This document shows, piece by piece, positions 5,641-32,046 of a stretch of DNA of 64,000 bases. This stretch comes from Bacillota bacterium (GTDB lineage Bacteria > Bacillota > Clostridia > Christensenellales > CAG-917). The notes below the pieces were generated by a model. The model searched no databases, was not told where the DNA came from, and was given only the letters and a program-made list of their open reading frames with translations. Both the position numbers and the translations under genes were made by a program. The stretch covers positions 5,336 through 69,335 of the forward strand of contig JAMPEA010000006.1 of NCBI GenBank assembly GCA_023665365.1, in the 5' to 3' direction. Position 1 is the first letter of the stretch; every line of letters starts with the position of its first letter.

Positions 5641-5963
5641 TGCCAAATTGAAAACTTTTCACAGTTTTTCCATAAAATATAACTCAATCGAGAAATCAAA
5701 TTATTATCTTCGCTTATCATTATAATAAAACTGCTTGACACAAAACAAGTTAAACACAAACTGCACTTTTTATTATTTGAAATGAAAGAGAAACTCGGCG
5801 CACTCAAAAGCATGTACGAGTGCGATAATCCGCTAAAACTCGCAATTTAGACGCGATACGCAAAAACTAAAAAGTAGCCAAAACTCGTGATTTAGATGAG
5901 AGGCGCGAAAGTGACGCTTGAATGACAAGCCTAACGTACAAAACGTACGTGACGAATAAAAAA

Positions 5964-6038
5964 TTTCGGGGTCCCCATAAAATGCCCCAAGGGGTCCCCA
6001 TAAAATGTCCCTATTTTATGGGGTAATTTTTGTGGGGG
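5964..6038 (+). repeat. Family B REP-like hairpin (TTCGGGGTCCCC...GGGGT), one copy nested in another
   Basis: GGGGTCCCCATAAAATG at 5968 and 5991. Related copies at 15486, 27011, 27326, 61692(-), 61914(-), 63200 and 63676. Confidence 0.8.
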
Positions 6039-11855: not shown

Positions 11856-14373
<2,518 letters not shown>

Positions 14374-14375
14374 TG

Positions 14376-14720
14376 TCAGTCTTGAACGGTTTGTTCGTCA
14401 ATAATATATTTGGCAAGTAGAATTTCTACGACCTTATCCGCACATTCCTCGACGGCGGGCTTTTTTTCCTCGATGAAATACTCGGCGTCCTCGGCGCCTT
14501 TTTTCAAAATTTCGTCGGTCTTTTCGGCGGCGCGTTCGCGTGCGCTTTGCAGGATATTTGCCCTATCCTGCTTACATTCGCCGATAGTGGCTTTCTTCTC
14601 CGCCTCGGCGTCCGCCTCGGCTTTGAGCACGATGTTTTTGCCGCGTTGATAGGCGTTCTTTTGCATCTTTTCCGCCTTTTCCTCGGCTTCTCTCACGTCT
14701 TTAAGCACGTCGTCTATCAT
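14376..14720 (-). CDS. ntpF: V/A-type ATPase peripheral stalk subunit G/H (E. hirae NtpF)
   Basis: Charged coiled coil VREAEEKAE; first gene of the ntp order FIKECGABD. Confidence 0.8.
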   Translation of the reverse strand: MIDDVLKDVREAEEKAEKMQKNAYQRGKNIVLKAEADAEAEKKATIGECKQDRANILQSARERAAEKTDEILKKGAEDAEYFIEEKKPAVEECADKVVEILLAKYIIDEQTVQD

Positions 14721-15166
14721 AGATTACCCTCTTCGATGTCGCTTATCATATCCAATCGCCTCTGATGCCTGCCGCCCTCGTATTCGGCGGTGAACCAAGC
14801 CTCAACGATTTTCTCCGCCTCGGCGGGAGTGACAACTCTGCCCCCGAGCGCGATTATATTTGCGTTGTTGTGATTTTTGGTGAGCTTAGCCATATAGGTA
14901 TTCGTCACGACAGCCGCCCTTATCCCTTTGACCTTGTTTGCGGCAATGGAAATGCCAATGCCCGTGCCGCACATAACTACGCCGAGGTCGCACTCGCCCG
15001 AGGCGACCGCCTTTGCAACCTTCTCGCCGTACAGCGGATAATCGACCGAACTTTCGTCAAAACAACCGAAGTCCTTCACTTCCGCCCCCAAGCGTTCGAG
15101 CGTACTTACAACGCTGTCTTTCAGCACAAAACCGCCGTGGTCGCACCCGATAGCAACTTTAACCAT
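14717..15166 (-). CDS. rpiB: Ribose-5-phosphate isomerase B
   Basis: IGCDHGG, SVDYP, CGTGIGISIAANK, HNNAN and GGRHQRR motifs. Confidence 0.97.
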   Translation of the reverse strand: MVKVAIGCDHGGFVLKDSVVSTLERLGAEVKDFGCFDESSVDYPLYGEKVAKAVASGECDLGVVMCGTGIGISIAANKVKGIRAAVVTNTYMAKLTKNHNNANIIALGGRVVTPAEAEKIVEAWFTAEYEGGRHQRRLDMISDIEEGNL

Positions 15167-15318
15167 AACAAAGCTCCCTAATAATTTAGTTTATTATACT
15201 ACGATAGTTTTTAAAAATCAACTTAAATCGGTTTTCATAGGCTTGATTAAATAAAAATTAAATGTATTATTATGTAATTATATATATAAAAAATATAAGT
15301 GATATAGATAACTATATA

Positions 15319-15700
15319 AGCTGTGCGTCGTGTACTCTAAAATATATAGCCCACCCCTTCCGACTTCGCGGTTTGCAAGGCAATCCCGCTCGTTCGCTTT
15401 GGCTACAAACAATCCACTGGATTGTTTGCTTAACGCGTCGCGCCCTTTGGGCTTTCCATTTCACTTTTTATAGCGCGCGCGTTTCGGGGTCCCCACAAAA
15501 TGTCCCTATTTTGTGGGGTATAGTATCGTCCACTCGACGCTTACAGCGCGAGATTATGCCACTCGTTCGCGGAAATTAAAACAACAATTTTCCGCTCACT
15601 TGTACTCATTCTGGCACTTGGCACTCCCTTCCTCCGCGCCCTGCGCGTCGCGTTCTAAACGTCGTAACAACTTTGCGTCGTGCTCACCCTCACTCAAACT
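15319..15700 (-). ncRNA. Family F structured element, copy 1 (candidate ncRNA or non-autonomous mobile element)
   Basis: Blocks shared with 32047-32470 (46 nt with 1 mismatch; 35 nt identical); covarying hairpin 15569-15595; carries nested family B (15486-15519) and an AAACAATCCACTGGATTGTTT palindrome (15407-15427). Confidence 0.55.
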
Positions 15701-15709
15701 TTAAACCTC

Positions 15710-15896
15710 AAAAGCTCGCGTAAAACTCTGCAATTTAGATACAGTACGCGAAAGGAGCGATTTTATCTTTTTTCAAACCTATAAAAAACTTGCATAAGCG
15801 CGATAAATTATAAATATAAAAGCTCGCGTAAGCGCGATATTTAGATGAAGAACGCGAAAGAGGCGTTTGTTAGCTGTCTCAAATCGCAAAAATTAT
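15710..15896 (+). repeat. Array of truncated family A left arms
   Basis: AAAGCTCGCGTAA...ATTTAGAT...CGCGAAAG at ~15711 and ~15819, a degenerate unit at ~15785, then the full element at 15897. Confidence 0.8.
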
Positions 15897-16043
15897 AAAA
15901 AGCTCGCGTAAACCCTGTAATTTAGATGAGATGCGCGAAAAAGCCCCGTTTCAAGTCGCCTAGTGTACTAACGTACACGACGACGAAGAAACGGGGCTTT
16001 GACAAAGCATATCGCTAAATTACAGGGTTTACGCGAGCTTTTT
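15897..16043. repeat. Family A hairpin element (complete copy A2) overlapping the stop codon of the giant gene
   Basis: Perfect 29-bp outer inverted repeat (15897-15925 / 16015-16043); inner stem AAGCCCCGTTTC/GAAACGGGGCTT; apical GTGTAC/GTACAC. Confidence 0.9.
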
Positions 16044-19000
16044 GAGTTTCGACTTGCGCAACACAAACGCCACCACCGTCCACACAACCGCGATTGCAAC
16101 CAAACTTGCGCCGACGGCAATCAAGATGATTTGCCATAGCGGCATAACGTTTGCTGTGAACTCGACGAATACGAGCGCGCCGAGGTAGTCGGTGGTATAG
16201 GTAATCTTTCCGTCGGCCACGGTGTAGCCTTCAAGGAGTTTGAGCCCGCCGTCTGCGGTGACGGTGTAGATTGCCTTGTCTTTCAAATCGCCGACGGTCT
16301 CGGGGACGGCGACGCTTACTTCAACACTTCCGCCGTTGAGCGTGACGGGCGTATCGTCGCAGTAGATTTCAAGTTTGACGATGGATGAGAGTTTGGCTTG
16401 GTTGTTGATATGCGGCATATACTCGTTGACGTCGCTCCAAAGCCCCAAATCCGTGCCGCTGCCCTTATCCTGCGTAATCTCTTTTGCGACGAGCCTATTT
16501 GCGACGATATTCGAGCCGACGTTGATGCTCGCGTCGGAGGCTTCGACGTTCTTGGTGGTGAGCACGAGTACGCCCTGTGCGCCCACGAGCTTATAGTTGT
16601 TTTCGTCGAGGTCGCCCTTTACAATCTTGATTGAGAAGGGGTATCTGCCTGCGGATGTGATTTCCTTATCGAAGGAAAGCACGGTCTGAGATTTGGGCAG
16701 TTGCAACGCCGCGTCCAATCCCGACATATTTATGATGTCATATGCGATTTCATAGCTCGTCTTAGCGCTGTCGTACTCGGCGGTCAAGGTCTTGACGGAG
16801 GTATTTGGGACTTCCGTATAGCCGACGTTTGAAATAATCACGTCCACAGTAGCCGTCAAAATCTTGTAGGTCACGGCGACCGTATCCGTCGCATAGTTGG
16901 GATAATCGTCCGCGAAGCTACTGTTAAGCTCGATTGTCACGCGATAAGTGCCGGCGTTGCGCATCTCGTCAACGGCTTCGTAGTCTTTGCCGCGCAGGAC
17001 GGCGTAAGAGATATTCACGTGATTTGCGGACAAATCGCAGACGGAGCTAATCATCTTGTTTACGCCCTCGCCGCCGACTTCGTAGGCATAGGGCTTGCCA
17101 TCGTAGTATTTGGAAGTCGTCACAGCCGAGAGTTGCGCGTTCGCTCTTGCAACGAAGATAGAAACTTCGTCGCCGCTAATCCAGAGATTGCAGTATCCGC
17201 GCGGGTCGCCCTCGTCGATTTTGATTGCTCTCCTGACGACGACGTGTCCGACGTACGCGCTGTCGGAAGCGTTTATGACTTCGACGGCTTCGTCGGCGTT
17301 GCCCAAGCCTATTTCGTCGCCCGCGGCGAGCGCGCCGAGAATGAGATTTTTCACTTGGTTGCTGCCGTCGTAGGTGAAGTTGAACGCATTGTTTTCAGCG
17401 CCGCGCAAGGTCAAGCCCGCCATGTCGGGGAGTTTGATTTCAAGCGTGGACGCGGCGGATTTGAACGGATACATTGCGCCGCTTTCGTCGCCCGCGACAG
17501 CGTAGGTCGTCATGACGTTGCCGTCTGCGACCTCGAAGCCCGTGCCGAGAATGACGTTGTAGTTTGAAGATGCATAGTCCGCGTTTTCGGGAGCGAACAC
17601 GCGAGCCGCGTAGATTTCGTCATCGCCGAGCCCGACGTTGATGCCGTCGCCTTTGCTTATAAGCGCGTATTTGTAGGCGGATTGATAGGTGTTGAGGTCA
17701 ACGATTTCGTCGGCATTTTCCGCGCCGAGCATAATCCACTCGCCCGTTGTGAGATTGAGTACGCCCCATCTGACTTCGGGCAGTACGCCTACGAAAGTAT
17801 TGTGCGCGTTTTCGCCTGCCGCGAAGCCCTCGCCGCCGTCCTTATTGAGGTAGAACAGTTCCACGGTCGGGTCGATGTCGCCGTAGGTCTTGGAGTAGTT
17901 TTTGCCTATCGTCAAAGTGCCCGTAGTCGTGACGTAGAGGTCCTTTTGAGCGACGGTGAGAACGCTGTTGCCCTCGGTATTCGTCTCGCTGTACTTGGGC
18001 TGGAACACGAAGTTATCAATCGCGGTGACGGCGAGGTTGTACGTCAGCGAACTTTCGCCCGCTTTGGGGACGGGGTTTTCAAAGGTGACGTTCACTGTGG
18101 GCAACGAGGATACGGACAGTCTTATATAGTATTTATCCAAATCGTTTTGGTTCACTTCGCCGTCGTACTTGTTAAAGCCGTTGAGCGTTTCGCCGTCCTT
18201 GACGATGACGTACATGCTTGCCGCAAAGTCCTTTTTATAATCGGCGAATTTAAAGCCCATCATATCTTCGAACTGTTCGAGCGCCAAGTAGAGTTGTCCC
18301 TCCCACTCGGTCAACAGATACAAGCCGTCGGAATTGGCTTCACTTGTGTTGTTGCCGTGCGCCAAGTAGGTGACGTCGCCGACAATTTTGTTGAGCGCCG
18401 TGCCGTACTCGACGTTGCCGTCGTTGAGGATAGCGTCGATAGGACGTCTTATAATTTCGCCCTTGTGCCTTGCCGGAGTGATATTGTCGTCTATGCTGTA
18501 ATTGAGATAGTCTTTGCTGGTTTCATTGTTTTCGTCGGCAGGACCGATTCCGCCGGGAGTAAACTCAACGTAGTTTGCATAAGTGGAGGAGTTTTCGTAT
18601 TTTGCAACGACTCTGACTACGCTTACGTCGTCGCCGGGGATTACGCCTACGACTCCGCCCTCTATATAGCTGTAATCAACGTCCTCTACGCCGTAGAAGT
18701 ACGTCGTTCCGTCGTACATTTTGGTAAACGCGTCTTCGTTTATCACGTCGATAGCGTCCGAGGAAATGGACAACCCTTTCTGGTTGATTTTGCCGTAGCC
18801 GTTGACGTAGGTCATAGCCGCGGGGAGCGATTTGATGACCTCGGCATCGCTATCGTCATAACCGTCGTATGCGGAATATATCGCGTAGACCTCGCCCACG
18901 TCTTCGAGCGCGTATCTGCCTGCGACCGCGCCCGCCGCGAACGCATTAGCTATTGCGACCTTGTTGTTGTCGTTGATTGCGATATATTTGTCCGCCGTCG

Positions 19001-22000
19001 GGAGCGCGTAGTAGCAATAATCCACGTTATAGTAATTTCCCTCATCGTCCTGCGGCGGGACTTCGCCGTAGTGAAGCACGCCCTCAAAATCGACGTATGC
19101 CAGATAGTCGCCCAAGCCCAAATAGTTGCCGTCGGCATCCTTATATTTTCCGTTATCGTCGGGGGCAATATATTTATCGGTTGTGATAGCAAGCACGTAG
19201 TTGACGATGCGGCTGCTCGTATATGTGCCGAGCTCGGGGTTGAACACAGTGCCCTCTTTGCCGACGACCTGCTCGCCGTCGATGGCGACGTTTTTATCGA
19301 TATAGTAGGCGGTTTTGTCGTAAACCACTACGTCGTATCCGCCGCGCGAGTCCATGCCGATCATCGTTTCTGTTTTCAGCTCGAACTTGACATTGTTGCT
19401 TGCGCCCTCTATCAACGCTTTGCCGTTGTACTCTTTTTCGCCCAAATCGACGGTGAAGCCGATAGGTCTTGGGAGAATGTTTGCGATGCGTGTTCTTTCT
19501 GTCGCGGACAGGAAGTAGTTGTTGAGCAAGTGCTCGTGACCGACCTCTGCGACAAGCTCGAACTTATCGATTGTGACGCGCAGATTCGTACCCACGTTTG
19601 ACCCATTAAACGTGCCGATGGCTTTGATAGAGAGGTACTTTGCCTGCTCCTGCCCATCGTCCTCGATGATGCCGGAGTTTTTAAGGGTAATCTTGACGTC
19701 GGCGGTGTTGTAGCCGTCGTAGACCTTATCCTTGATGACTATATTGTTGTCAAGGACTTTGACTTCCTTGCGGCTGATTGTAAGAACGTCGAACAGCTCG
19801 TAGTCATTTACTTTGTTTTCCTCGCCGATTTCGACGGTGACGTAGCTTCCGTCAACGGTCATACTGTACATGACGTAGTTTCCAAGGTCCACGCCCTCCG
19901 CGAGGAGCTTGACCCCGCGCACGATGACGTCGCGCTTGATGAGATTGCCGTTGTTCTCGTCGATGAGGACGTTTGCATTTTCAACGCCGTCCTTGGAGAG
20001 GAAATATTCGATATCGCCTTCGTTTGTGATTTTTTCAAGCTCGTCCATGAGGTCGAACGTATAGTTTTCGGCGATGAACTCGTAGGTATATTCGTGCCCG
20101 CGGGACGGTTCGACTTTCGCCTTGCCGTTGTACTCTCTGTCCTTAAAGACGACGTTGGGGATGAGTTTCGCCTTGTTTACGGTGACTTTTAACGCGTTGT
20201 CGCCCGAGTAGTAGGCGTTGAGCGCCTCTAAGTCGAGCTTGTAGTTGTCGCTGCTGACGTAAGACTCGTCGGTGATTTCGACGGAATGGTCAATGCCCGC
20301 GTTGACGTTGCCGTCGTTGATTTTAGTGAAGATATTGACGCTTACGATATTGACGTCCTCGTCGGCGAGCGCGCCGTGAGCGAGGGTGATTTCGGTACGT
20401 TTCACGTCCGCTTTCGAGGTGTAATCTTGCGCGACGGGTTTAATTGACACGAAGTCGTCCGCGCCGAGTATCTTTTGCGTGATAGAGGCGGCGAGGTCCT
20501 TGATATTGATGCGCACGCCCTCGTTTTCGATGATGGTGATTTGGATAGTCTCGTCGTAGTACGCGTCGGTATCCTTAATTTCGATACTGCCCTCCTCCTT
20601 GATGCCGGGGAAGTCGAAGAAAAGCGTAATCTCGACGTAGTAGCTATTCACGTCGGCTTTCGGGAATGTCGTGCCGCTGATGAGGTGCGAGGCTGACGTA
20701 CCCCAGAGGCGATACAGCATAGTAGAGCCGCCGTTCGCGTCGGAGCGGTTTTTGATTTGGATATTTTGCGCGTAGATGCCCGTGCCGCCGTCGTAGACCT
20801 TGGACACTGAGAAGTCCGACTTATAAATTGCGATTGCGCCCATGGAAATCGTGATGCGAGCGGATTTTTCGTAGGGCTTGTTGTTGAGGTAGTAGATGAC
20901 GACCTTGACGTTAACGTTTTGGCTGTTGAAGTCGAGTTTAGTAGAGTCGGTGATGAGCGTATCGCCGTTCCACAGCTCGTTTTGGGGGTCGTCGCTCGGG
21001 AGGTTGCTGTCGTTGACGATAGTGCCGAGGCGGTAGTTGTTTGCCGACGAACCTTCGAGGCGGAGATTTGTGAAGATAATGCCTACGTTGGTAGGTTCGC
21101 TCATCGAGCCTACGCCGGTATACACCGCGTCGAAAGCGAGGCGGAGGTCGTCGATAGCCCTTACGAGCTCGCTCGAAAGGTTATAAGCGAGGGTCGCGCC
21201 AAAGTCCACCGTATTTGTGTTGTCGAACGCCCTATTGACGCCGACGAAGTTTTGGACGCGGAGGTTGACGGCTTTCTGCTCGATGACGAATTTCTTTGCG
21301 GTATCGAGCAAAGCTCTGACGGTGAAGCCGCTGTTGGAGCTTGTAAACGCCGATCCGACCGCGAAGCTGTAATAGTCGCCGTTGCCGCCGATGATGAAGC
21401 CGTTGTTGTAAGTTGCGGGGTCGTACTGCTCGCCGAACGCGCGGAAAGCGCCGTTATTTGCGTAGCGACCTCTGACGTAAGCGCCGGAGATGGTGCTTCT
21501 TATATCCGTCCTGCTAATGCCTGCGTAGCTTTCGCCAATGGGGAAGTCCTTGCCGTTGATAGACACGATAACGTAGTCGAAATTAAATCCGCTATCGGAG
21601 TTGCCGTAGATTTTGCTATCGTCTCTATTCGTAGGTCTGATGACAATCTCGACGGGGTTTACTCTTATGGTAAACGTGCCGACGACGACTCTATTTTCGA
21701 GTTCCTCGTTGCCGTTGAGGAGTTTCGCGTCCGAGACGACGACGTTATAGCTGCCCGCGCCGAGGTATCCGTCGGCGAGGTTGACAGTCCACGAAACGTC
21801 TGTGAAATCGGGCATTGTGGGAAGCTCTGTACTCTCGACCAAATAGCCGTTGTCGTGCAGGTATTTATAGGTCAATTCTTTGCCTTGGATTTGTCCGTAG
21901 AGGAAGTCGAGGCTGACGCCGTCCCTTATATTGATGATGACAGCGTCGGGATTGCCGATATAGATATAGTAGATTGCGCCCTCGGCGAGGGTGATAATCA

Positions 22001-25000
22001 TCTCGTTTGTTTCGACGACGTTATTATTGCCGAGGACTATATCGTAGGCATATCCGCCGAAGTAGCCATCGTAGCCCGTGCTCCAAACGCCGTCGCCGCT
22101 TAGCATAAGCAGACCCGCGACCGCGGTTTTAATAGCGTCGGCAAAGGTCACGTCCTTGCTTTCGAGCGCGTAGTCGAGCGTAATGCCGCTTGTATCGGGA
22201 GCGTTATCGGGGTCATACTCGCTATTCAGTTTGACGAGGAACTGCCCGCTTGCGTCGATGCTGACCTGCCTCTTTTGGATTGTAAAGGTCTTGCCCTCGA
22301 CGGAGAGGACGATTTCGTAGTTATTGTTGTTTGTGGTAATGGCGCTTGACGCGTCGTAGGTATACGAGCCGACCGCCTCGCCCGCTGCGCGCGTAATTCT
22401 TCCGCCCGACGAGAAGATGAGGAGTTTATCTTTTTGCTCGATAAAATCATAGCCGTTGAGCAACACCTCTTTTTTGATGAGGTTTTCGATACTGCCTGTG
22501 CCGCCTACGGCGGTAAACCAACCGAACTGCTCCGTGCTTACCGAGAAGTAGATAGCGGGGTCGGAGTTGCCGAACTGTTTAGACTGATCTACTGCCGAGA
22601 CGTTGACCGTCCTTTGCTTGACAGTGTGCTTTATGCCCTCTTTGAACTCAACAGCGTAGTTTTCGCTTACACTCTGATCCTCGTGGCGCACGATAAAGAG
22701 CCTCTCTTGGATTATCTCGTAGATGGCGGCGTCTATTTCGAGAGAATTGCCCCAGTAGGCGGCGTCGAGTTTGAGACTGCCGTCAAGATATTCGCCCGTA
22801 AGCGGCGCTTCGTACTTGCCGTCCGCGTTCAATTCGCCGACAAATCCCGAGATTTCGAATTTGAGCTCGATTTCGTCGCCGTACACGCTTTCGGTTGCGA
22901 CAGGCGTGATTACCACAAGCCCTTGGAGAATTGAGAACTGTATCGGGACGTTGAAGCCTAATTTGTTATCCGTCTCAGACGGCGCAAGGACGAACGCCTC
23001 GTTATATTGTTTATTATTTTCATCAGTATATATATCATCTAAATATATACGAATATAATAAGTGCCGACGTCGATGGGAATTCCGTCAAACTTTACGCCG
23101 CTTTGCGAAGCGTTGTCGAAAGAGGAGTAGAACTCGAATTTGAGATATTCCTTTGCGGCTTCGTCGCTTAAATCCACGTAGTTAAGCATATTGAGCTTGG
23201 TCGCGTCGTAGAATTTGTTTGCGCTCGGAGTTTTTGAAACGATCTTTCTTACGGACGCGGTGAAATTGACGTTGTTTTTCGAGCCGTTCGCGTCAACAGG
23301 AAGCATGTCAAACTTATCGTTGTCGTCGAGCTTGTAAGTGATAGTATACTCGTTGCTGTTCTCGTCGTGCGTGACGGTGATTAGCGATGCGAAGCTGTCA
23401 TCCGCGATTGTAAACGTATTGCCGGACGTGTAATTGTAAAGCAAATTGGTCTCGCCTACGTTGAAGCGGAAAGGCGCGTAGCCGCTGTTGGGCGCGAAAG
23501 TGAGCGTGACGGTGTCGCCGCGCTTAGCCGCATCTATATCGGCAGAAAGAGTGCCGTTTTTGCCGAAGTTATTATCGCCTATAACCGCGTCGAGCATGGA
23601 TGCGCTTACTGTATACTCCGTCACGTCAATGAGCACGTAGTACGAATTGAGCTTTGACACGCGTCCCGACTGGTCCACCGACCAAACGTAGATGACGCGC
23701 ATACCCGCGCCGAGGCTCTGCTTAAACTCGACGTTGAGGTCTACGCTGGATTCCGTGAGTTCGTCGAGCGTGTAAATTTTGAGCGTATCGAGGTTAGTGC
23801 TGCTCAAAATCGAGTTTATATATTCCTCTGATTTATCGATCGCAAGCCCTTTATACGCCTTCTCCATATCAAAGACTGTGCCGAATTTTTCAAACGCCTC
23901 GACGGTATTAAGATATTTAACCGCTATGAAAACGCCCATTTTCGTATTAAAGGAGCTGTTTGCAACTACTGAATCATAGAACGAAGAAAGCGTGGCGCTT
24001 AGCGCATAATTATCAGTTTTCCACTTTTTGTTTGCCGCGTCGAACTTATAAAGCAGAGTATGCGTTTCCTCGTTGCTATTTGCCGCGAGGTAGCCGTCCG
24101 AGCCGTCGCTCAGCGTCGGAGTGTCGGGGTCAATGCGGTCGATGAAGATGCTTGCCTTTCCCTTGGATGCCGCTTTTTTTAAAGAGGGGTCGCCTTCCAT
24201 ATCCGCCACGCTCGCGTATGCGACCGTCGATATATCGAAAGCCGTCCTCCAAGCGACCGTCGGAAACGCGCCGCTTTCGTTGCCCTCGAATGTCACTACG
24301 ATAGTGCCGACGTAATTTTTGGCTGCGGCATAATACTCTACGCTATATGTGAAGTAAACGTCTGTTATATCAAGCTCTGTCACAACGTCCGACAAGGTAA
24401 TTTGCCCTGTTTCGTCATCTTTATTAGTGCCAATCAACCCGTTCCCTTGGTCGCTTTGGGTATAAAGTTTAAGATTGCCCTCTCTGTCGAAGCAAAGTAT
24501 ATATACCTTTTCGTTTTTATCCGTAAATTTGATTGTATTTCCCGAGAAGTTGATTGCCGAGACAGTGAACGTCAACGTAGTGTCGCCCATTGCCCAAACG
24601 CCGTCGGTATCCTTGGTTTGGAATATATTTTCCTGCGATATTGTTTCCGTATTGTCGGTTGTTTTGACCGTTGCATTGACCGAATAATCCGAGCAGTCGT
24701 CGTAGTCAACCTTGACGTAGTACGTGCTTGACGTTGAATTAAATCTGCCCGACGCGTCTATCATATAAAAGTCGAAACGATAGTAGCCTGCGCCTGTCGC
24801 GCTGACCCCCTGCGGACTGCTTACGTTATAATCGGTTGATTTATAACCCTTTGCCTTGCCTGTTTCAAAGTCGTATTCAAATTTCGAAAAAGAACCGTAG
24901 CCTAACGGCAACATTGTAGATTGACTCTTTATTGAGCTATACTTTGTATATCTGGAATTGGTCAAGCCGCTTATTGTGTCGGCGCGTTTAACGGTGTAGA

Positions 25001-26849
25001 ACCACACGTACGGCGCGTCGTCGTCGGCTTCGGGCACAGTGACGGTAGCAGAAAACTTCTTTTGCTTATACCATTTCGTATCTGTCCTTTGAAGCGCGGT
25101 AGTAGTGGTTGCCACGTATGAGTAATCGCCCGCAAGCGCTTCGAGCGTGGTGTCTCCTTTGACTTCTGACAAATCGATGCCGCTGAACGTTACGTTAGAC
25201 TCGCACGTGCCGTTGCCGTAGTCTTTGACCGTAATTTTCAATTCGACGTTTTGCAACGCGTATAGGTACACTCTCACACGCGCCCTGTTAAACTTGGCGA
25301 CCACAAGATATCCGACAACAGTATTCGCCACTCCGTTTACTTTTCCCTTAATTTCAACCCGATCGCACATATTGGTTGAATCCACCGAGTTTGTGTTAGA
25401 CGCAGTAATCTTTGTATCGTACATATACTGCGTAGTCGCAGATACAGTATCGCTTCCGATTGTGCCGGAAACCGCAATGGATTTTATGCCGGAAGCCACT
25501 TTTGTCGCAGTCTTAACGTCGGTATCCGCCGACCAGCCGTTAGTGGCGTCGTACGTATATCCGCCGATACCCATATACTTCCTTACGTCGGCGGTTGACG
25601 TGTACGTAGACGTGTTGAATGCGCCGCTTGACGCCGTGCCTGCCGAGTAGTTATAAGTATCGGCAAAATCTATCTCGGCGCTCTTGTAATACTTTGTAGA
25701 TACGCTATCTTTTCCGATAGTCTTTGTTAGCTCTTCCGACGTATATGAATTCAAAGTCCAGCCGGCAGACGGATTGCCCTTATCAGCAGCCTTTTCAAGG
25801 TCGCTTTGGAGGATTTGATAATAAACGGGCCAATTACTGTTGGGAGTCGGACGATATGGCGTATAAAGCTCGCACGCCTTCTTGGCGTCTACGTCGGTAG
25901 CATTGCCCGTAAGCTCGTGCGTCGTCTTGTCCTCGCCAAACACCGTGCTCATTTTGACAGGATGTCCGCCGTCCTTGATTGAAGTTGAAGCACTGTCTGC
26001 GGCATTGGATAATGAGAGCGTAAAGGTCAGACTGATGGATTCTATGTATATGTATCTATCATATCCTACACCCAAAGTAGACTTTTTCGGCCAATCCATG
26101 CCTATACATATCCCCAAAAACTTGTTTCCTGTGCTGAGCGTTGCGTCGCTTGCAGTATATGTCGTATTAGAAGTTTCCTTTTTAGTTGCGTCAGTTGTAT
26201 AGCCCCTAAGGGTAGTCTCTAATCCGCTTGACGCCGGCATTTTGTTAATGCCAAACGCTTTGTACCACACATTATTTGTATATCTATTTTCTACTACCTT
26301 AAATGAAAATTTTGCCTTGACAGTAATATTGCTATTGTCAATCATTTGGCACAAAAAGTCGCTTAACTCGTAAAACAAGAATAACTGAGCATCATATGGA
26401 TCGACAGCCTTTTCAACGCGAACCTGCCATTTGCCCTTTTGATTTTCTCTGCCTGTTAATTTTGGATTTCCGCCAGATTTAATAAGGACTTGGTTTGTTT
26501 GAGTCGGCGTAACTTCATTAAAATTGTCCGTAGCCGTCCAAGACGTTTTCGTAGTCGTCGTGCCGGGGAAGGTGCTTGTGAAATCTGTATATTTCAACGC
26601 GCCTTTTGCACCCGTGATGGTTTCGGGCACGCCGCCGAGAATAGTACCTTTATCTCCCGACGAATAGTTGCCGTCATTATTTTCCGCCGACGCAACGTTG
26701 TCTAAGCCGTTATTCGCAAAATCACCGTTATTCGTATTAGGCGCAAACGCCAACGTGAGACTGAATGCCAGCGCAAAACACATTGCTACGGCAACAAGCG
26801 CCATCACCTTGATTGCGCCCTTTTTCTTCCACGTCTTGCTTTCTCTCAT
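16029..26849 (-). CDS. Giant (3606 aa) cell-surface protein with MBG/YDG-type repeats and a C-terminal membrane anchor
   Basis: N-terminal signal (KKKGAIKVMALVAVAMCFALAFSLTLAFA); repeated KVYDG/KMYDG/KEYNG and KIYGNSD/KTYGDIDP motifs; C-terminal TM helix followed by RKSKLKK. Confidence 0.85.
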   Translation of the reverse strand: MRESKTWKKKGAIKVMALVAVAMCFALAFSLTLAFAPNTNNGDFANNGLDNVASAENNDGNYSSGDKGTILGGVPETITGAKGALKYTDFTSTFPGTTTTKTSWTATDNFNEVTPTQTNQVLIKSGGNPKLTGRENQKGKWQVRVEKAVDPYDAQLFLFYELSDFLCQMIDNSNITVKAKFSFKVVENRYTNNVWYKAFGINKMPASSGLETTLRGYTTDATKKETSNTTYTASDATLSTGNKFLGICIGMDWPKKSTLGVGYDRYIYIESISLTFTLSLSNAADSASTSIKDGGHPVKMSTVFGEDKTTHELTGNATDVDAKKACELYTPYRPTPNSNWPVYYQILQSDLEKAADKGNPSAGWTLNSYTSEELTKTIGKDSVSTKYYKSAEIDFADTYNYSAGTASSGAFNTSTYTSTADVRKYMGIGGYTYDATNGWSADTDVKTATKVASGIKSIAVSGTIGSDTVSATTQYMYDTKITASNTNSVDSTNMCDRVEIKGKVNGVANTVVGYLVVAKFNRARVRVYLYALQNVELKITVKDYGNGTCESNVTFSGIDLSEVKGDTTLEALAGDYSYVATTTTALQRTDTKWYKQKKFSATVTVPEADDDAPYVWFYTVKRADTISGLTNSRYTKYSSIKSQSTMLPLGYGSFSKFEYDFETGKAKGYKSTDYNVSSPQGVSATGAGYYRFDFYMIDASGRFNSTSSTYYVKVDYDDCSDYSVNATVKTTDNTETISQENIFQTKDTDGVWAMGDTTLTFTVSAINFSGNTIKFTDKNEKVYILCFDREGNLKLYTQSDQGNGLIGTNKDDETGQITLSDVVTELDITDVYFTYSVEYYAAAKNYVGTIVVTFEGNESGAFPTVAWRTAFDISTVAYASVADMEGDPSLKKAASKGKASIFIDRIDPDTPTLSDGSDGYLAANSNEETHTLLYKFDAANKKWKTDNYALSATLSSFYDSVVANSSFNTKMGVFIAVKYLNTVEAFEKFGTVFDMEKAYKGLAIDKSEEYINSILSSTNLDTLKIYTLDELTESSVDLNVEFKQSLGAGMRVIYVWSVDQSGRVSKLNSYYVLIDVTEYTVSASMLDAVIGDNNFGKNGTLSADIDAAKRGDTVTLTFAPNSGYAPFRFNVGETNLLYNYTSGNTFTIADDSFASLITVTHDENSNEYTITYKLDDNDKFDMLPVDANGSKNNVNFTASVRKIVSKTPSANKFYDATKLNMLNYVDLSDEAAKEYLKFEFYSSFDNASQSGVKFDGIPIDVGTYYIRIYLDDIYTDENNKQYNEAFVLAPSETDNKLGFNVPIQFSILQGLVVITPVATESVYGDEIELKFEISGFVGELNADGKYEAPLTGEYLDGSLKLDAAYWGNSLEIDAAIYEIIQERLFIVRHEDQSVSENYAVEFKEGIKHTVKQRTVNVSAVDQSKQFGNSDPAIYFSVSTEQFGWFTAVGGTGSIENLIKKEVLLNGYDFIEQKDKLLIFSSGGRITRAAGEAVGSYTYDASSAITTNNNNYEIVLSVEGKTFTIQKRQVSIDASGQFLVKLNSEYDPDNAPDTSGITLDYALESKDVTFADAIKTAVAGLLMLSGDGVWSTGYDGYFGGYAYDIVLGNNNVVETNEMIITLAEGAIYYIYIGNPDAVIINIRDGVSLDFLYGQIQGKELTYKYLHDNGYLVESTELPTMPDFTDVSWTVNLADGYLGAGSYNVVVSDAKLLNGNEELENRVVVGTFTIRVNPVEIVIRPTNRDDSKIYGNSDSGFNFDYVIVSINGKDFPIGESYAGISRTDIRSTISGAYVRGRYANNGAFRAFGEQYDPATYNNGFIIGGNGDYYSFAVGSAFTSSNSGFTVRALLDTAKKFVIEQKAVNLRVQNFVGVNRAFDNTNTVDFGATLAYNLSSELVRAIDDLRLAFDAVYTGVGSMSEPTNVGIIFTNLRLEGSSANNYRLGTIVNDSNLPSDDPQNELWNGDTLITDSTKLDFNSQNVNVKVVIYYLNNKPYEKSARITISMGAIAIYKSDFSVSKVYDGGTGIYAQNIQIKNRSDANGGSTMLYRLWGTSASHLISGTTFPKADVNSYYVEITLFFDFPGIKEEGSIEIKDTDAYYDETIQITIIENEGVRINIKDLAASITQKILGADDFVSIKPVAQDYTSKADVKRTEITLAHGALADEDVNIVSVNIFTKINDGNVNAGIDHSVEITDESYVSSDNYKLDLEALNAYYSGDNALKVTVNKAKLIPNVVFKDREYNGKAKVEPSRGHEYTYEFIAENYTFDLMDELEKITNEGDIEYFLSKDGVENANVLIDENNGNLIKRDVIVRGVKLLAEGVDLGNYVMYSMTVDGSYVTVEIGEENKVNDYELFDVLTISRKEVKVLDNNIVIKDKVYDGYNTADVKITLKNSGIIEDDGQEQAKYLSIKAIGTFNGSNVGTNLRVTIDKFELVAEVGHEHLLNNYFLSATERTRIANILPRPIGFTVDLGEKEYNGKALIEGASNNVKFELKTETMIGMDSRGGYDVVVYDKTAYYIDKNVAIDGEQVVGKEGTVFNPELGTYTSSRIVNYVLAITTDKYIAPDDNGKYKDADGNYLGLGDYLAYVDFEGVLHYGEVPPQDDEGNYYNVDYCYYALPTADKYIAINDNNKVAIANAFAAGAVAGRYALEDVGEVYAIYSAYDGYDDSDAEVIKSLPAAMTYVNGYGKINQKGLSISSDAIDVINEDAFTKMYDGTTYFYGVEDVDYSYIEGGVVGVIPGDDVSVVRVVAKYENSSTYANYVEFTPGGIGPADENNETSKDYLNYSIDDNITPARHKGEIIRRPIDAILNDGNVEYGTALNKIVGDVTYLAHGNNTSEANSDGLYLLTEWEGQLYLALEQFEDMMGFKFADYKKDFAASMYVIVKDGETLNGFNKYDGEVNQNDLDKYYIRLSVSSLPTVNVTFENPVPKAGESSLTYNLAVTAIDNFVFQPKYSETNTEGNSVLTVAQKDLYVTTTGTLTIGKNYSKTYGDIDPTVELFYLNKDGGEGFAAGENAHNTFVGVLPEVRWGVLNLTTGEWIMLGAENADEIVDLNTYQSAYKYALISKGDGINVGLGDDEIYAARVFAPENADYASSNYNVILGTGFEVADGNVMTTYAVAGDESGAMYPFKSAASTLEIKLPDMAGLTLRGAENNAFNFTYDGSNQVKNLILGALAAGDEIGLGNADEAVEVINASDSAYVGHVVVRRAIKIDEGDPRGYCNLWISGDEVSIFVARANAQLSAVTTSKYYDGKPYAYEVGGEGVNKMISSVCDLSANHVNISYAVLRGKDYEAVDEMRNAGTYRVTIELNSSFADDYPNYATDTVAVTYKILTATVDVIISNVGYTEVPNTSVKTLTAEYDSAKTSYEIAYDIINMSGLDAALQLPKSQTVLSFDKEITSAGRYPFSIKIVKGDLDENNYKLVGAQGVLVLTTKNVEASDASINVGSNIVANRLVAKEITQDKGSGTDLGLWSDVNEYMPHINNQAKLSSIVKLEIYCDDTPVTLNGGSVEVSVAVPETVGDLKDKAIYTVTADGGLKLLEGYTVADGKITYTTDYLGALVFVEFTANVMPLWQIILIAVGASLVAIAVVWTVVAFVLRKSKLKKLA

Positions 26850-26927
26850 AATCTTCCCTCCAACAAAATCTCCCCAGATTTTATTTGGCTTTTGCCCTCA
26901 TTGAGGTCGTCCCAAAACCCCTTAAAA

Positions 26928-27060
26928 TTCGTCACCCAAAGGAGCGAAGCGACGCGGCAATCCAGAGAATTTGCAAGTAAATGATTAACATTCTGGATTG
27001 CTTCACCATCGGAGTCCCCGCAAAATGTCATTTTGTGGGGTGAATTCCTCGCAAAGGCGG
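26928..27060. repeat. Family C REP-like element (GCAATCCAGA...TCTGGATTGC) with nested family B, in the leader of the giant gene
   Basis: GGAGCGAAGCGACGCGGCAATCCAGA ... TTCTGGATTGCTTC [B at 27011-27041] CTCGCAA. Related pieces at 27336, 29211, 61961 and 63441. Confidence 0.75.
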
Positions 27061-27175
27061 CGATTGATTGAGTTTTGAAACAACTCTATTGCGGGCTGAA
27101 TTTCCCTTATCTTATATAATATATACGCCCGTACACGCACGCGTGCCTCACGCATTATATATCATATGCTATTAT

Positions 27176-27204
27176 ATGATAAACCTATAACTTTCCAATG
27201 TCAA
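27176..27204 (-). promoter_or_regulatory. Candidate sigma-A promoter of the giant gene
   Basis: Minus strand TTGACA, 17 bp, TATCAT. Confidence 0.5.
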
Positions 27205-27223
27205 TAGTAAATTTTTTACAATG

Positions 27224-27470
27224 ATCCACCTCATCACCGCTCCGCTTGCGCTCTGCGGAGCTTCCCCTCATAGGTGAAGCCATAGTATGGATATTGTGTC
27301 CCTCTGTCCGTTAGCCCTCCCCTTCGGGGTCCCCGATGACGAAGCAATCCAGAAAAGCCCTCCCATTGAGGGGAGGGTGTCACGCAGTGACGGGTGAGGT
27401 GTCAATTTAATCCACCTCATCACCGCTCCGCTTGCGCTCTGCGGAGCTTCCCCTCGTAGGTGAAGCCATA
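27224..27470. repeat. Family D REP-like cluster (61-nt direct repeat plus inverted partner)
   Basis: 27224-27284 and 27410-27470 are identical except for one base; between them lies CCCTCCCATTGAGGGAGGGTGTCACGCAGTGACGGGTGAGGTG, related to 61875-61960 and 63474-63512. Confidence 0.8.
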
Positions 27471-27516
27471 TTATTGATAGGGTCTATCGGCTACCGTTAA
27501 AATCAGACAAAGTCTG

Positions 27517-27619
27517 CGACTTAAAAATGCGTATTTACGCAACTTTGCGACATAAAGTCTTGACAATGCCACTAAACAGTAGTAAACTGTGTACGACTTA
27601 AAAATGCGTATTTACGCAA
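27517..27619 (+). promoter_or_regulatory. Promoter flanked by two identical 26-bp operator-like repeats
   Basis: CGACTTAAAAATGCGTATTTACGCAA at 27517-27542 and 27594-27619; TTGACA (27560), 17 bp, TAAACT (27583) between them. Confidence 0.7.
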
Positions 27620-27639
27620 TTTTAAAACATAGGTGTTTT

Positions 27640-28929
27640 ATGGTTATTGAAAGAGAACGCTATTTAAACAAGCTGATAAAGAAAAAGGAAAACGGGCTTA
27701 TCAAGATAATTACGGGCATACGCAGGTGCGGCAAATCGTATCTGCTGTTTGAGCTTTACAGAAAGTATTTGCTTGAAAGCGGCGTTGATGAAAATCATAT
27801 CATATCGCTTACGCTTGACGACGACGAAAATATAAAATACAGAAATCCGTTTGAGCTTGGCAAGTATATCCGAGGCGAAATCAAAGACGAAAAAACCTAT
27901 TACGTTTTTATAGACGAAATACAAAAGGTAGTGAACGTGCAAAACCCGTATATCGAAAACGCCGAGGACAAGGTGGGGTTTGTCGACGTGCTTTTGGGAC
28001 TTATGAAAATAAAGAACGTCGATTTGTACGTGACGGGCAGCAACTCGAAAATGCTTTCGTCGGACATATTGACGGAATTCCGTGGCAGAGGGGACGAGAT
28101 AAGGATAAATCCATTGAGCTACGCGGAGTTTTATTCGGCGACGGAGGATAAGCGGCACGCTTGGCGCGATTATTATACCTATGGCGGAATGCCGCTTGTG
28201 CTGTCTAAGGATACGCACGAGGAGAAAAGCAAGTATCTGAAAGACCTGTTTGCAAACACGTATTTTGCAGACGTGTTGGAGCGCCATAAGATAAACGACC
28301 CCACCGCGCTTGACGACCTGCTCAATATAGTTGCGTCGTCGATAGGGTCGCTCACGAACGCAACAAAGCTGTCCAAAACGTTTAAGAGCGTGAAAAACGT
28401 CAACATATCCCCCAAGACGATAGACGGCTATCTAAACGACTTTATAGACGCGTTTTTGCTTTATAAATCTTTCAAGTATGATATTAAAGGCAAAAAATAT
28501 ATAGAAACTCCGCTCAAATACTATTTTTCGGACGTGGGATTGCGCAACGCGTGGCTGAATTTCAGACAGCTTGAAGAAAATCATATTATGGAAAACGTCA
28601 TATACAACGAGCTCCGCGTGAGAGAGTTTGACGTTGACATCGGCGTTGTCGAATACAATTATAAGGAAAACGGCGCAAGTAAACGCAAGCAGTTGGAAGT
28701 GGATTTTGTCGCCAACAAGGGAAGCAAAAGATACTATATACAATCTGCACTGACGGTTGCAGACGAAAGCAAGCGTGCGCAGGAAACTAATTCGTTGAAA
28801 CGGATTGCCGATTCTTTCAAAAAAATAATAGTCGTAAAGGACGATATAGTGCCTTGGCACGACGAAAACGGCGTACTCTATATCGGCATTGAGGAATTTT
28901 TGCTTGATGAGAATGCAATGGATTTTTAG
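27640..28929 (+). CDS. AAA_14-type ATP-binding protein with DUF4143 domain and a C-terminal nuclease-like motif
   Basis: ITGIRRCGKS Walker A, FIDEIQ Walker B, VTGSNS, YGGMP, KYYFSDVGLRN, ENVIYNEL, EVDFV...YIQ. Start ATG 27640 after an AGGTG RBS. Confidence 0.9.
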   Translation: MVIERERYLNKLIKKKENGLIKIITGIRRCGKSYLLFELYRKYLLESGVDENHIISLTLDDDENIKYRNPFELGKYIRGEIKDEKTYYVFIDEIQKVVNVQNPYIENAEDKVGFVDVLLGLMKIKNVDLYVTGSNSKMLSSDILTEFRGRGDEIRINPLSYAEFYSATEDKRHAWRDYYTYGGMPLVLSKDTHEEKSKYLKDLFANTYFADVLERHKINDPTALDDLLNIVASSIGSLTNATKLSKTFKSVKNVNISPKTIDGYLNDFIDAFLLYKSFKYDIKGKKYIETPLKYYFSDVGLRNAWLNFRQLEENHIMENVIYNELRVREFDVDIGVVEYNYKENGASKRKQLEVDFVANKGSKRYYIQSALTVADESKRAQETNSLKRIADSFKKIIVVKDDIVPWHDENGVLYIGIEEFLLDENAMDF

Positions 28930-28950
28930 GCAGTTTTCGTATATCTAAAC

Positions 28951-29253
28951 AAGTAAAAATGCGCTATTTGGCGCACTGCTTCGTTAGACGAGCACGCGAG
29001 CAACCCAACGTACAAACCAAACGCAACTTAAAAACACGATATTTTGCGTCAGACAAAACAGTTAGTTTGTAAAAACGCGATATTGAGATGAGTGACGCGA
29101 AAGTGCCGCCTGAATTACAAGCCTAACGCACACACTTTACATAAGTAAAAACGCGATATTTACGTTAAACAAAGTAATTAGCTAGTAAAAACGCCACTCT
29201 TTCACGCCAATTCTCTGGATTGCTTCGCCAATAAATTAGCTCGCAATGACGAC
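28951..29253 (+). repeat. Array of truncated family A arms sharing (AA)GTAAAAACGCGATATT, with a family C piece
   Basis: Units at ~28951 (opposite arm), 29028, 29069, 29143 and 29184; family C at 29211-29251. Confidence 0.8.
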
Positions 29254-29381
29254 GTAAAAACGCGATATTTGGATGCAGTACGCGAAAGGGGCGATTTTTT
29301 ATCTCGCCTAACGTACAAGTCGTACGTGACGAGTAAAAAATCGCCCCTGACAAAGTAATGCGCCAAATAGCGCGTTTTTAC
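29254..29381. repeat. Family A hairpin element (complete copy A4) overlapping the pckG stop
   Basis: 19-bp outer inverted repeat with 1 mismatch (29254-29272 / 29363-29381); inner GGGGCGATTTTTT/AAAAAATCGCCCC; apical ACGTAC/GTACGT. Confidence 0.9.
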
Positions 29382-31147
29382 TTTAAGTTGGATTTTAGCG
29401 TATCCAGTTCTGCGCGAAGCTCCTTCGGCAAATCATCGCCGAATTTGGCATAGAACTCCTCAATACCCTCGGCGTCTTGCAACCAAAGCTCCTTGTCAAC
29501 GCTGAGCAGGTTCGCAATATCGGCTTCGGTCATATCCAAGCCTTCGAGATTGATATCCGCGGGGTTGGGGACGTATCCGATAGGCGTTTCGACCGCTTCC
29601 GCAGTGCCTTCCGTGCGGCGGATAATCCAATCGAGCACGCGCAGGTTGTCGCCGAAGCCCGGCCACAGGAAGTGACCCTCGTCGTCCGTCCTAAACCAGT
29701 TGACGTTGAATATCTTCGGGCGTTTCTCAGCCTTTGTGCCCATCTCAACCCAGTGCGCGAAGTACTCCGCCATATTGTAGCCGCAGAAAGGCAACATTGC
29801 CATCGGGTCGCGCCTTACTACGCCGACTGCGCCGCTTGCCGCCGCCGTCGTCTCGGATGCCATAATCGAGCCTACGAAAACGCCGTGGTTCCAATCTCTC
29901 GCCTCGTACACGAGCGGAGCAGTCTTTGCGCGACGACCGCCGAACACGATTGCATCGAGCGGAACTCCCTGCGGGTTTTCAAACTCGTCGGACAGGCACG
30001 GGCAGTTGACCGCAGGCGCTGTAAAGCGGGAGTTCGGATGCGCGCCCTTTACGCCCTCGGCTTGCTCCTTTTCTCCCCAAGGATTGCCCTGCCAGTCAAT
30101 GGCTTTCTTGGGCGGATTTTTGTCAAGCCCTTCCCACCAAACCGTATTGTTTTCAAGATTGTGGCATACATTAGTGAAAATCGCGTTCTTCCTCGTGGAA
30201 GCGAGCGCGTTGGGGTTGGATTTCACGTTCGTGCCGGGTGCAACGCCGAAGAAGCCGTTTTCGGGGTTGATGGCGTACATTCTGCCGTCCGCGCCCACTC
30301 TTATCCAAGCAATGTCGTCGCCGACGGTGTGGACCTTATATCCCTTCTTCGCAAAGACCTCGGGCGGAATGAGCATAGCAAGGTTTGTCTTGCCGCACGC
30401 CGACGGGAACGCCGCCGCGATATATTTCGTCTCTCCGTTGGGCTTTTCAAGACCCAAAATGAGCATATGCTCCGCCATCCAGCCCTCGTGCCAGCCTTGA
30501 TAGGACGCTATGCGCAGCGCGAAGCACTTTTTGCCGAGCAGTACGTTTCCGCCGTACGCAGAGTTGACCGACATAATCGTATTGTCCTCGGGGAACTGGC
30601 AGATATATCTTTTTTCCGCGTCAACGTCCGCCTTGGAGTGCAAGCCGCGCACGAAATCGTCGCTTGCGCCGAGCTGGTCGAGCACCTTTTGCCCTACCCT
30701 CGTCATAATCGCCATGTTGAGCACGACGTAAATCGAATCGGTAAGCTCGATGCCGATCTTCGAGAACGGCGAGCCGACCGCGCCCATCGAGTAGGGGATG
30801 ACGTACATCGTCCTACCCTTCATCGCGCCTCTGTAAATCTCTTTGAGCATCGCGTAAGCCTCGTCTTTTTGCATCCAGTTGTTGGTTGGACCTGCGGTCT
30901 CCTTCTTCTCTGTGCAGATAAACGTACGACCCTCTACGCGGGCAACGTCGTTGGGCAGAGTGCGGTGCAAATAGCACCCCGGCAACAGCTCTTGATTGAG
31001 CTTTATCATCTCGCCCGTCGCAACCGCTTCCGCGCGCAACGCTTCGAGTTGCGCCTCGCTGCCGTCGATAAGCACAACCTTATCCGGCTGACAAAGCGCG
31101 ACGCTTTCGTCTACAAATTTTTCAACGCCTTTGCTGAGAAATTGCAT
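29378..31147 (-). CDS. pckG: Phosphoenolpyruvate carboxykinase (GTP)
   Basis: DVARVE, YGGNVLLGKKCFALR, WMAEHM, FPSACGKTNLAM, VGDDIAW, HPNSRF and VNWFR motifs. Confidence 0.98.
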   Translation of the reverse strand: MQFLSKGVEKFVDESVALCQPDKVVLIDGSEAQLEALRAEAVATGEMIKLNQELLPGCYLHRTLPNDVARVEGRTFICTEKKETAGPTNNWMQKDEAYAMLKEIYRGAMKGRTMYVIPYSMGAVGSPFSKIGIELTDSIYVVLNMAIMTRVGQKVLDQLGASDDFVRGLHSKADVDAEKRYICQFPEDNTIMSVNSAYGGNVLLGKKCFALRIASYQGWHEGWMAEHMLILGLEKPNGETKYIAAAFPSACGKTNLAMLIPPEVFAKKGYKVHTVGDDIAWIRVGADGRMYAINPENGFFGVAPGTNVKSNPNALASTRKNAIFTNVCHNLENNTVWWEGLDKNPPKKAIDWQGNPWGEKEQAEGVKGAHPNSRFTAPAVNCPCLSDEFENPQGVPLDAIVFGGRRAKTAPLVYEARDWNHGVFVGSIMASETTAAASGAVGVVRRDPMAMLPFCGYNMAEYFAHWVEMGTKAEKRPKIFNVNWFRTDDEGHFLWPGFGDNLRVLDWIIRRTEGTAEAVETPIGYVPNPADINLEGLDMTEADIANLLSVDKELWLQDAEGIEEFYAKFGDDLPKELRAELDTLKSNLK

Positions 31148-31439
31148 AATACCTCCTGTGCCTTAGCACGAAAATTATTTTCTTTATTTCTTTTGTTATG
31201 AGATAAATAAACTTTATATATACTTTATTTATCGCACGTCTAAAATGATACAATATTTTCCATTTAATGTCAATATAAAATTGCATTTCACCACTGCAAC
31301 TTGTGGCTCGAAATCGCAACGTACACAACTAATTGATTTTCTCAAAATTCGCGTTTTTTCGCTTGTGTTTATTTCCGCCCGAGTTTAATATAAATATTCG
31401 CCGACACTTTGCGGTTTATTTTTCGGAATGCGGGGTTTT

Positions 31440-32037: not shown

Positions 32038-32046
32038 AATTATTTT

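Follow-up and report, generated by a model that had tools for sequence, protein, structure and literature searches.

Family F, a probable new family of modular structured interspersed repeats in a genus of gut Clostridia, with a candidate triple-helix domain

What kind of element is the folded, non-coding sequence at positions 15319-15700 of the window, a 64,000-nucleotide stretch of a Bacillota genome, and why does it recur at 32045-32470? The preliminary description had taken it for a two-copy element and a candidate new class of non-coding RNA. Its reading of the letters was accurate: 15525-15570 matches 32194-32239 at 45 of 46 positions, in agreement with the repeat families D12 and D13 listed for the window, 15617-15651 is identical to 32340-32374 over 35 nt, and the hairpin between these blocks conserves an A-rich loop while its stem changes from GCGGAAATT/AATTTTCCGC in copy 1 to GCAGACC/GGTCTGC in copy 2. 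The picture of a non-coding, multi-stemmed element with a conserved core, into which optional stem-loops are inserted at fixed points, was likewise borne out. The genome, however, holds about 30 copies instead of two, and the element, which we call Family F, is best classed as a new bacterial family of structured interspersed repeats, not as a new ncRNA class.

The number of copies found depends on the probe. Copy 1 as a BLAST query gave 89 matches in its own genome (1.59 Mb in 58 contigs), an nhmmer profile of the canonical form gave 54, of which 21 represent canonical copies over their full length and about 19 run up to a contig end, and a covariance model of the 53-position core, termed R1, gave 27 copies. 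Because about 19 of the 54 profile matches lie at contig ends, the family is one reason for the broken assembly. The copies are about 300-450 bp long and modular, and they share 70-93% identity in a mosaic fashion, with optional hairpins that come and go at fixed points; gene conversion, and not recent movement, could explain part of this pattern. As had been predicted, no known RNA family accounts for the element: Rfam 15 gave no match at gathering scores over the whole window, including T-box, riboswitches, 6S, tmRNA, RNase P, OLE, ROOL/GOLLD and ribozymes, and a search at E<=10 over 15100-16100 and 31950-32750 placed nothing inside the element. No published description of Family F was found in the literature searched, the supplements of the microbiome RNA catalogue PMC8040213 lying outside that search.

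Comparison with the canonical profile and with the other copies of the genome shows that copy 2 is typical and copy 1 atypical. Read 5' to 3' on the minus strand of the window, which is the G-rich strand, copy 2 has the conserved block of its 5' domain (32340-32374), followed by an optional hairpin module that is missing from copy 1 (32291-32317), the central domain (32223-32272; R1 match G000:C55:37558-37607), a pyrimidine tract that we call C (32157-32173), a purine tract B (32091-32106), a small GC hairpin (32082-32090) and a second purine tract A (32072-32081), which mirrors tract B. The GC hairpin joins tracts B and A, and its place is taken by a CCGG-N6-CCGG hairpin in other subfamilies. 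This copy sits between convergent genes, directly past a bidirectional terminator hairpin at 32010-32038. Copy 1, a variant subfamily member of about 380 bases whose probable folding strand is again the minus strand, shares the conserved, purine-rich block of the 5' domain, which includes a small GC hairpin (15617-15651), and a central domain (15554-15605; R1 match G000:C55:20889-20940) that consists of a variable stem of 7-8 bp with a conserved U-rich loop, alongside which lie tandem G.A mismatches and outer pairs. It also carries, on the same strand, an optional hairpin module that is present in some copies only and whose stem varies by compensation (15533-15552). Tract A is retained at 15350-15359, both partner tracts B and C being absent, and model positions 56-148 are replaced by an alternative module (15363-15484) that is common to about five other copies and contains a palindrome at 15406-15428. 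The difference is also visible in BLAST depth, with most of copy 2 lying under 16-34 matches and positions 61-180 of copy 1 under 5-7.

Two further insertions illustrate the modular build. At 15486-15518 copy 1 contains a nested palindrome of a different repeat family, D4, over which the BLAST depth reaches 53 matches. This family, of the GGGGTCCCC...GGGG type and 33-35 nt long, recurs in the window at 5968-6025, 63198-63232 and 63675-63709, has about 53 BLAST matches in the genome and is nested in Family F copies at two different points. In addition, a hairpin module of about 50 nt (GCGATTG…CAATCGC type) lies between the central domain and tract C at the loci L047, L093 and L094 and in other relatives, and at another point (32291-32317) in copies of the own genome, which suggests that modules shift within the element.

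The compensatory change noticed between the two copies is real and far above chance. In a set of 31 distinct copies drawn from many species, pairing in the central hairpin stands at 95.5%, compared with 82.5 +/- 1.1% in shuffles, none of the 500 reaching the observed value, and 8 of its 13 pairs have changed on both sides; one of the changing pairs of the central domain is an outer pair, on the far side of a tandem G.A. When the partner was slid by 1-3 columns, pairing fell to 25-50%. The preliminary description had staked its element on covariation in a larger alignment, and this covariation is strong. RNAalifold, applied to the whole alignment of 66 sequences, predicted the central hairpin alone. 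The conserved structure in Family F is real, but covariation in a repeat does not separate RNA from single-stranded DNA.

As for the strand that folds, all 21 canonical copies form a more stable structure on the G-rich strand, with a mean difference of 14.8 kcal/mol, and copy 2 has a folding z-score of -4.2 there, vs -3.2 for the opposite strand. The invariant U.G pair, like the tandem G.A pairs, can exist on the G-rich strand only. The complement of the strand that was originally written out thus folds better and fits the non-canonical motifs, and the folding strand is probably the G-rich one, the minus strand of the window.

Beyond the central hairpin, the G-rich strand can form a long helix, P1, in which the pyrimidine tract C pairs with the purine tract B, which lies downstream at a distance of about 50-110 nt. 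P1 and the third tract were scored sequence by sequence, since bulges put the subfamilies out of register and make a single column-wise structure impossible. This helix covaries as well: cognate partners of P1 gave a mean of -17.9 kcal/mol vs -13.3 kcal/mol for non-cognate ones (33 types, 890 combinations), and the pairs comprise 345 Watson-Crick and 18 G.U pairs. P1 alone would be almost equally stable on the opposite strand (-17.0 kcal/mol). In every subfamily, past the small GC hairpin, tract A repeats tract B in reverse order: the mirror match between A and B averages 8.9 of 11 positions for cognate tracts, vs 7.1 both for non-cognate tracts and for a direct-order control, and 6.55 +/- 1.18 for shuffled sequence. 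On the G-rich strand the tracts are arranged in the order C, B, small hairpin and A, which is the class II order of pyrimidine, purine and reverse-Hoogsteen purine, as intrastrand triplexes of that class are defined, from 5' to 3', in the account of PMC4666352.

This arrangement raises the possibility that tract A is laid back on P1 as a third strand. When the third strand is set antiparallel to the purine strand, 375 of the 490 cells in 49 haplotypes are canonical triads (C-G*G, T-A*A and T-A*T), a code that, as described in PMC2532714, is that of antiparallel GA/GT triplexes. The mean per haplotype is 7.65 of 10, vs 5.43 for non-cognate combinations and 4.60 +/- 1.45 for shuffled third strands. 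Moreover, one concerted three-way change, from G*G-C to T*A-T, separates two subfamilies: the pyrimidine tract changes from TCTCCC to TCTTCC, the purine tract from AGAGGG to AGAAGG and the third strand from AGAGGG to AGATGG. The loops fit the class less well. Loop 2 is a hairpin of 9-15 nt and loop 1, from C to B, is about 50-110 nt long, whereas class II motifs have short loops between their tracts, of 1-6 nt in ITxF and 0-10 nt in Hoyne et al. Since the purine-rich, low-complexity background is high and the independent co-changes amount to a handful, an intrastrand class II purine-motif triplex in Family F is a possibility that we hold tentatively, and one that we would sooner expect to fail than to stand. 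Purine-motif triplexes are reported in PMC4666352 not to form in RNA, and the triplex, if real, would point to single-stranded DNA on the strength of that report. Copy 1 has persisted without tracts B and C, so that these tracts are not essential for a copy to persist.

Two other structures for the same tracts were discarded. A G-quadruplex on the G-rich strand does not agree with the subfamilies in which the tracts are interrupted, where the G-runs are not kept. A Watson-Crick switch between tract A and tract C, of the terminator/antiterminator kind, would have 8 bp in the canonical form and, by hand inspection, only 4-6 bp in the others.

Family F is restricted in its distribution. With its two best-kept blocks as queries, BLAST detected it in 17 of the 24 further species of the genus examined and in none of 16 genomes from other families. 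R1 was positive in 41 of 52 genomes of the genus, with 1-27 copies each, including 9 copies in a closed, single-contig genome of 1.6 Mb, and negative in all 149 genomes from the order's other genera. When 185,579 species, each represented by one genome, were scanned for an exact pattern, 63 stretches came back, mostly from records of uncultured Clostridia, Clostridiales or 'Christensenella sp.' MAGs, with a few odd labels (Bacteroides, 5; Butyrivibrio, 1; plain 'bacterium', 2). The records that could be cross-checked are the same small-genome Clostridia MAGs, and the locus labelled Butyrivibrio obtains a score identical to that of a locus of the genus, so that this label at least may be a binning label. 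The pattern had no match in a viral collection.

Within the genus, the sites of insertion differ between species. Among 28 sites of relatives with an identifiable orthologue in the own genome, the latter has a copy within 300 nt in 2 and in the same arrangement in 1. The spacer between purB and purA provides a clear case: in the own genome the purB stop and the ribosome-binding site of purA are set apart by about 385 nt of additional sequence, made up of the element and its flanks, while none of the 29 loci of other species (from 41 genomes, all having purA) shows a family match between the two genes, and only 2 of the 29 have any family match, at a distance of over 1 kb from the purA start in both. 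Elsewhere this spacer, in 15 loci with a located start, is mostly about 25-45 nt long and roughly 70-110 nt in four. With its sites not conserved, the family is insertional and undergoes turnover from species to species. A new ncRNA class had been envisaged; 1-27 copies per genome, restriction to one genus, sites that are not conserved between species and a position next to housekeeping genes of unrelated function speak against a dedicated ncRNA gene. At the level of strains, three public runs, which are contig sets of one study, yielded neither an empty site nor junctions over 14000-33900. Their contigs end at the repeats, at 15379/15995 and 32006/32631, in every run, including that of a strain about 2-4% diverged, and the listed joints connect repeat to repeat.

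The family shows few of the usual marks of a mobile element. The word TGCGTCGTG is indeed present at 15324-15332, the G-rich-strand 3' end of copy 1, and again at 15674-15682, as had been reported; its suspected role as a bracketing direct repeat is to be revised, since it is a consensus found at both ends of most copies, including 32444 at the end of copy 2, and not a variable target duplication. The element ends thus carry the direct repeat CGTCGTG(TA), and the sole inverted pair is CGTCG/CGACG, of 5 nt, beyond which no terminal inverted repeats were found there. No obvious target-site duplication was seen in the flanks just outside the consensus ends, the purB-purA spacer being too diverged for junctions to be placed. 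Family F nonetheless shares with MITEs its multiple copies, its non-coding nature and its presence/absence polymorphism.

Candidate partners for its movement were sought without success. The own genome, which is 99.5% complete, has no match to the Y1 transposase (PF01797) or to TnpB (PF07282), and across the genus Y1 is present in 10 of 41 family-positive and 2 of 11 family-negative genomes, indicating no association. The only reverse transcriptase of the own genome (L124, G000:C38:1985-2644, 364 aa) is of the DGR type by its motif, with an adjoining ORF for an Avd-like four-helix protein and a split serine recombinase nearby, and no Family F copy lies beside it. It had been suggested that copies might contain or flank an ORF for a recombinase, transposase, reverse transcriptase or nuclease; the four Y1 loci and the RT locus examined have no copy beside them. 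Y1, TnpB and the reverse transcriptase as partners, and carriage by phages, were set aside after these searches of the own genome, of Y1 in the genus and of the viral collection.

The orientation of the copies relative to genes is far from even, with the reservation that the counts rest on crude gene calls. Among 27 copies, 13 lie between tandem genes in the same orientation and 2 in the opposite one, 3 between divergent genes, 4 between convergent genes, and 5 are cut by contig ends. The G-strand 3' end faces the start of a co-directional gene in 23 of 36 cases, often 15-100 nt away, and the genes concerned are functionally unrelated (aspS, argS, carB, purA, upp, uvrA, polA, mnmG, trmL, uppP and rpiB); the remaining 13 point at the end of a convergent gene, in most cases with a terminator hairpin in between. 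Of 35 copies, 24 have their G-rich strand on the locally G-skewed strand and 23 have it on the main coding strand, a bias weaker than that of the orientation relative to the immediate neighbours. A consensus scan for sigma-70-type promoters and for terminators found nothing inside the element, and rpiB, which lies downstream of copy 1, has a good promoter of its own at 15221-15193.

We consider it rather probable that Family F is a genus-specific, non-coding and non-autonomous structured interspersed repeat, whose sequence is constrained by the fold of one strand, comprising the hairpin, P1 and possibly the triplex. The family would have spread to intergenic sites, including spacers within operons, with turnover between species, while its sequence would be kept by the fold of what is most likely the G-rich (window minus) strand, that is, the central hairpin with its tandem G.A flanks, P1 and perhaps the second purine tract laid back on P1 as a class II triplex. 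This fold might be recognized by a host or trans-acting function during copying, probably as single-stranded DNA. Copies might survive mainly when they are co-oriented with their neighbours and are carried in leaders and intercistronic RNA, where the hairpins may, as a side effect, alter the processing or stability of the mRNA. A bolder version, which we put forward as doubtful, is that a selected intramolecular purine-motif triplex of the 3' domain, formed in G-rich DNA displaced during replication or transcription, enables copying or recombination without a transposase, with the central G.A-flanked hairpin serving as the docking site of a host protein. If true, it would be the first bacterial triplex with three-way covariation behind it, and the first to be linked with the spreading of a repeat.

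The most serious competitor is that the copies are dispersed functional RNA elements, such as cis-acting leaders, intercistronic regulators or small RNAs, which are transcribed from the G-rich strand and control the downstream genes; this is the idea of the preliminary description with the strand reversed. It would explain the strong covariation, the better folding of the G-rich strand and the co-orientation of 13 vs 2 in tandem contexts, and also the many copies that end 15-50 nt from a start codon and leave space for a ribosome-binding site only, the terminator hairpins that follow copies in convergent regions, and the purine-rich SD-like sequence with one anti-SD-like pyrimidine tract. Against it stand sites that are not conserved between species, downstream genes without a common pathway, a copy number between 0 and 27 among close species, and an identity among copies of one genome far above that of independent riboswitch or T-box leaders. 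No promoter was seen inside the element by a simple scan, no Rfam family matches it, and the triad code fits the purine motif, which the account of PMC4666352 reports not to form in RNA. We regard the functional-RNA account as unlikely.

Another possibility is a mobile insulator cassette, which would stop and restart transcription by a terminator-like G-rich fold, a T-rich tail and an outward -10-like hexamer (TAnAnT). The 3' ends in the own genome do run through a T-rich stretch into TA[GAT]A[GA]T and ACACGACG, with positions 1, 2, 4 and 6 of the hexamer kept and positions 3 and 5 varying, but this hexamer has neither a -35 element nor an extended -10, the consensus scan finds no promoter, and relatives often have TAGGGT or AAGGAG-like words in its place. 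Several genes start 15-50 nt beyond a copy, with no space for another promoter, and the copy in the purB-purA operon is inserted co-directionally; rpiB, on the other hand, has its own promoter at 15221-15193, and the PIT elements of E. coli have neither promoter nor terminator activity as far as they are described in PMC4666352. Such a cassette seems quite improbable to us. Even less credit is due to the idea that the copies are decayed ends or fragments of an autonomous IS, integrative element or phage, the coding part of which would be missing from these draft genomes or unassembled in them. The many copies at contig ends could mean that something is missing beyond them, yet the closed 1.6-Mb genome has 9 copies, the loci examined showed no copy beside a transposase-like gene, and 21 full-length copies have ordinary genes as their neighbours on either side. 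In favour of the idea, a single gene lies between inverted copies in two cases (C14:1058/2856 and C54:50678/52791); against it, the viral collection is free of pattern matches and Y1 is not associated with the family. We judge this origin very improbable.

Taken as a structured interspersed repeat, Family F is best filed as nearest in kind to the modular repeats of the BOX or bcr type, with a candidate triplex domain of the BoxC/PIT kind. BOX elements are intergenic, often near gene starts, have a predicted stable fold and lack a transposase of their own, features in which Family F is alike, and their effects on expression and on neighbouring genes are documented. The repeats of the Bacillus cereus group known as bcr are genus-level elements of 100-400 bp with mobile and more stable sub-groups, some families of which show compensatory changes that preserve the fold, and here too Family F is alike; bcr1 has MITE features in the form of a target duplication. 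No such features were found in Family F, and the sequences of the two are unrelated. Family F is similar to MITEs and Correia-type elements, REP/RAYT elements and the PATEs of IS200-IS605 in being short, non-autonomous, multi-copy and hairpin-forming and in differing by presence or absence between relatives, but searches of Family F revealed no terminal inverted repeat beyond CGTCG/CGACG, no target duplication that varies and no DDE or Y1 enzyme linked to it. Like BOX of Streptococcus pneumoniae, the subject of Croucher et al. (2011, PMC3049150), it is a modular interspersed repeat of Firmicutes with optional sub-units, although the sequences and modules are unrelated and Family F is larger, with a triplex-type domain.

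The triplex domain is to be compared with the BoxC/PIT/TMECO elements of E. coli (Hoyne and Maher; Holder et al. 2015, PMC4666352). In these accounts the elements are, as in Family F, interspersed, non-coding and G/C-rich, with three tracts on one strand in the class II order of pyrimidine, purine and mirror purine and a mixture of C-G*G, T-A*A and T-A*T triads, and they vary strongly in copy number between close relatives. In contrast to the loop of TMECO, given there as 3-6 nt, the first loop of Family F is about 50-110 nt long and contains another hairpin, so that a finder limited to loops of 1-6 nt would miss the family. Its triplex tracts form one domain of a 300-450 bp composite, unlike those of BoxC/PIT as described in the same source, and its hosts belong to a genus of Clostridia and not to the Proteobacteria; the likeness is one of motif, no sequence similarity having been seen. 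The BoxC/PIT idea rests mainly on in vitro work, while in Family F the candidate triplex is proposed from co-variation. Dozens of diverged copies per genome in about 40 species amount to a natural mutational series, whose three-way co-variation supports the intrastrand triplex idea and makes the relevance of triplexes in cells testable by comparative means.

Family F also bears on matters outside its own mechanism. It accounts for the breaks that draft genomes of this gut genus show at one recurrent kind of place, and its insertion in operons and just upstream of housekeeping genes makes it a probable cause of differing expression among closely related gut strains. For RNA discovery it is a warning: compensatory change and good folding z-scores arise in interspersed repeats too and are insufficient alone to define an RNA gene.

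Other repeats accompany Family F. A family listed as D1/D2/D5, with hairpins of up to about 145 nt, occurs at 15713-16046, 5835-5964, 29072-29341 and 32481-32660, usually on the 5' side, with respect to the G-rich strand, of Family F copies; one unit has a promoter-like ATTACA-18-TATAAT at 15921-15892. D8, a 91-nt repeat rich in G-runs, is found at 53003-53093 and 61775-61865 with 87% identity, and on other contigs it directly borders many Family F copies at their right end, as though repeat modules were joined in larger composite arrays. Past the G-strand 3' end, a module of about 40 nt (…TTCTGGATTGCTTCG…GCAATGACG) is present in copies on contigs C4, C9, C12, C44 (102973), C45 and C54 (15584), and we take it to resemble a hairpin repeat that is widespread in other phyla.

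Copy 1 and the accompanying hairpin repeats lie directly downstream of an open frame of 3606 aa (16029-26849, minus strand), one D1/D2/D5 hairpin being placed directly past its stop at 16029. This frame contains the internal nucleotide repeats D3 and D6, and in the related strain of run X3 it is the most diverged part of the stretch. Tandem repeats follow, namely a pair of 70-nt units with 96% identity (27224-27293 and 27410-27479) and 43-nt repeats at 27512-27631; the summed contig depth in the bin with these repeats is about 8x the baseline, suggesting another multi-copy family. Further along, an open frame of 589 aa on the minus strand (29378-31147) and one of 574 aa on the plus strand (29477-31201) overlap almost fully, and one of the two is presumably a shadow frame.
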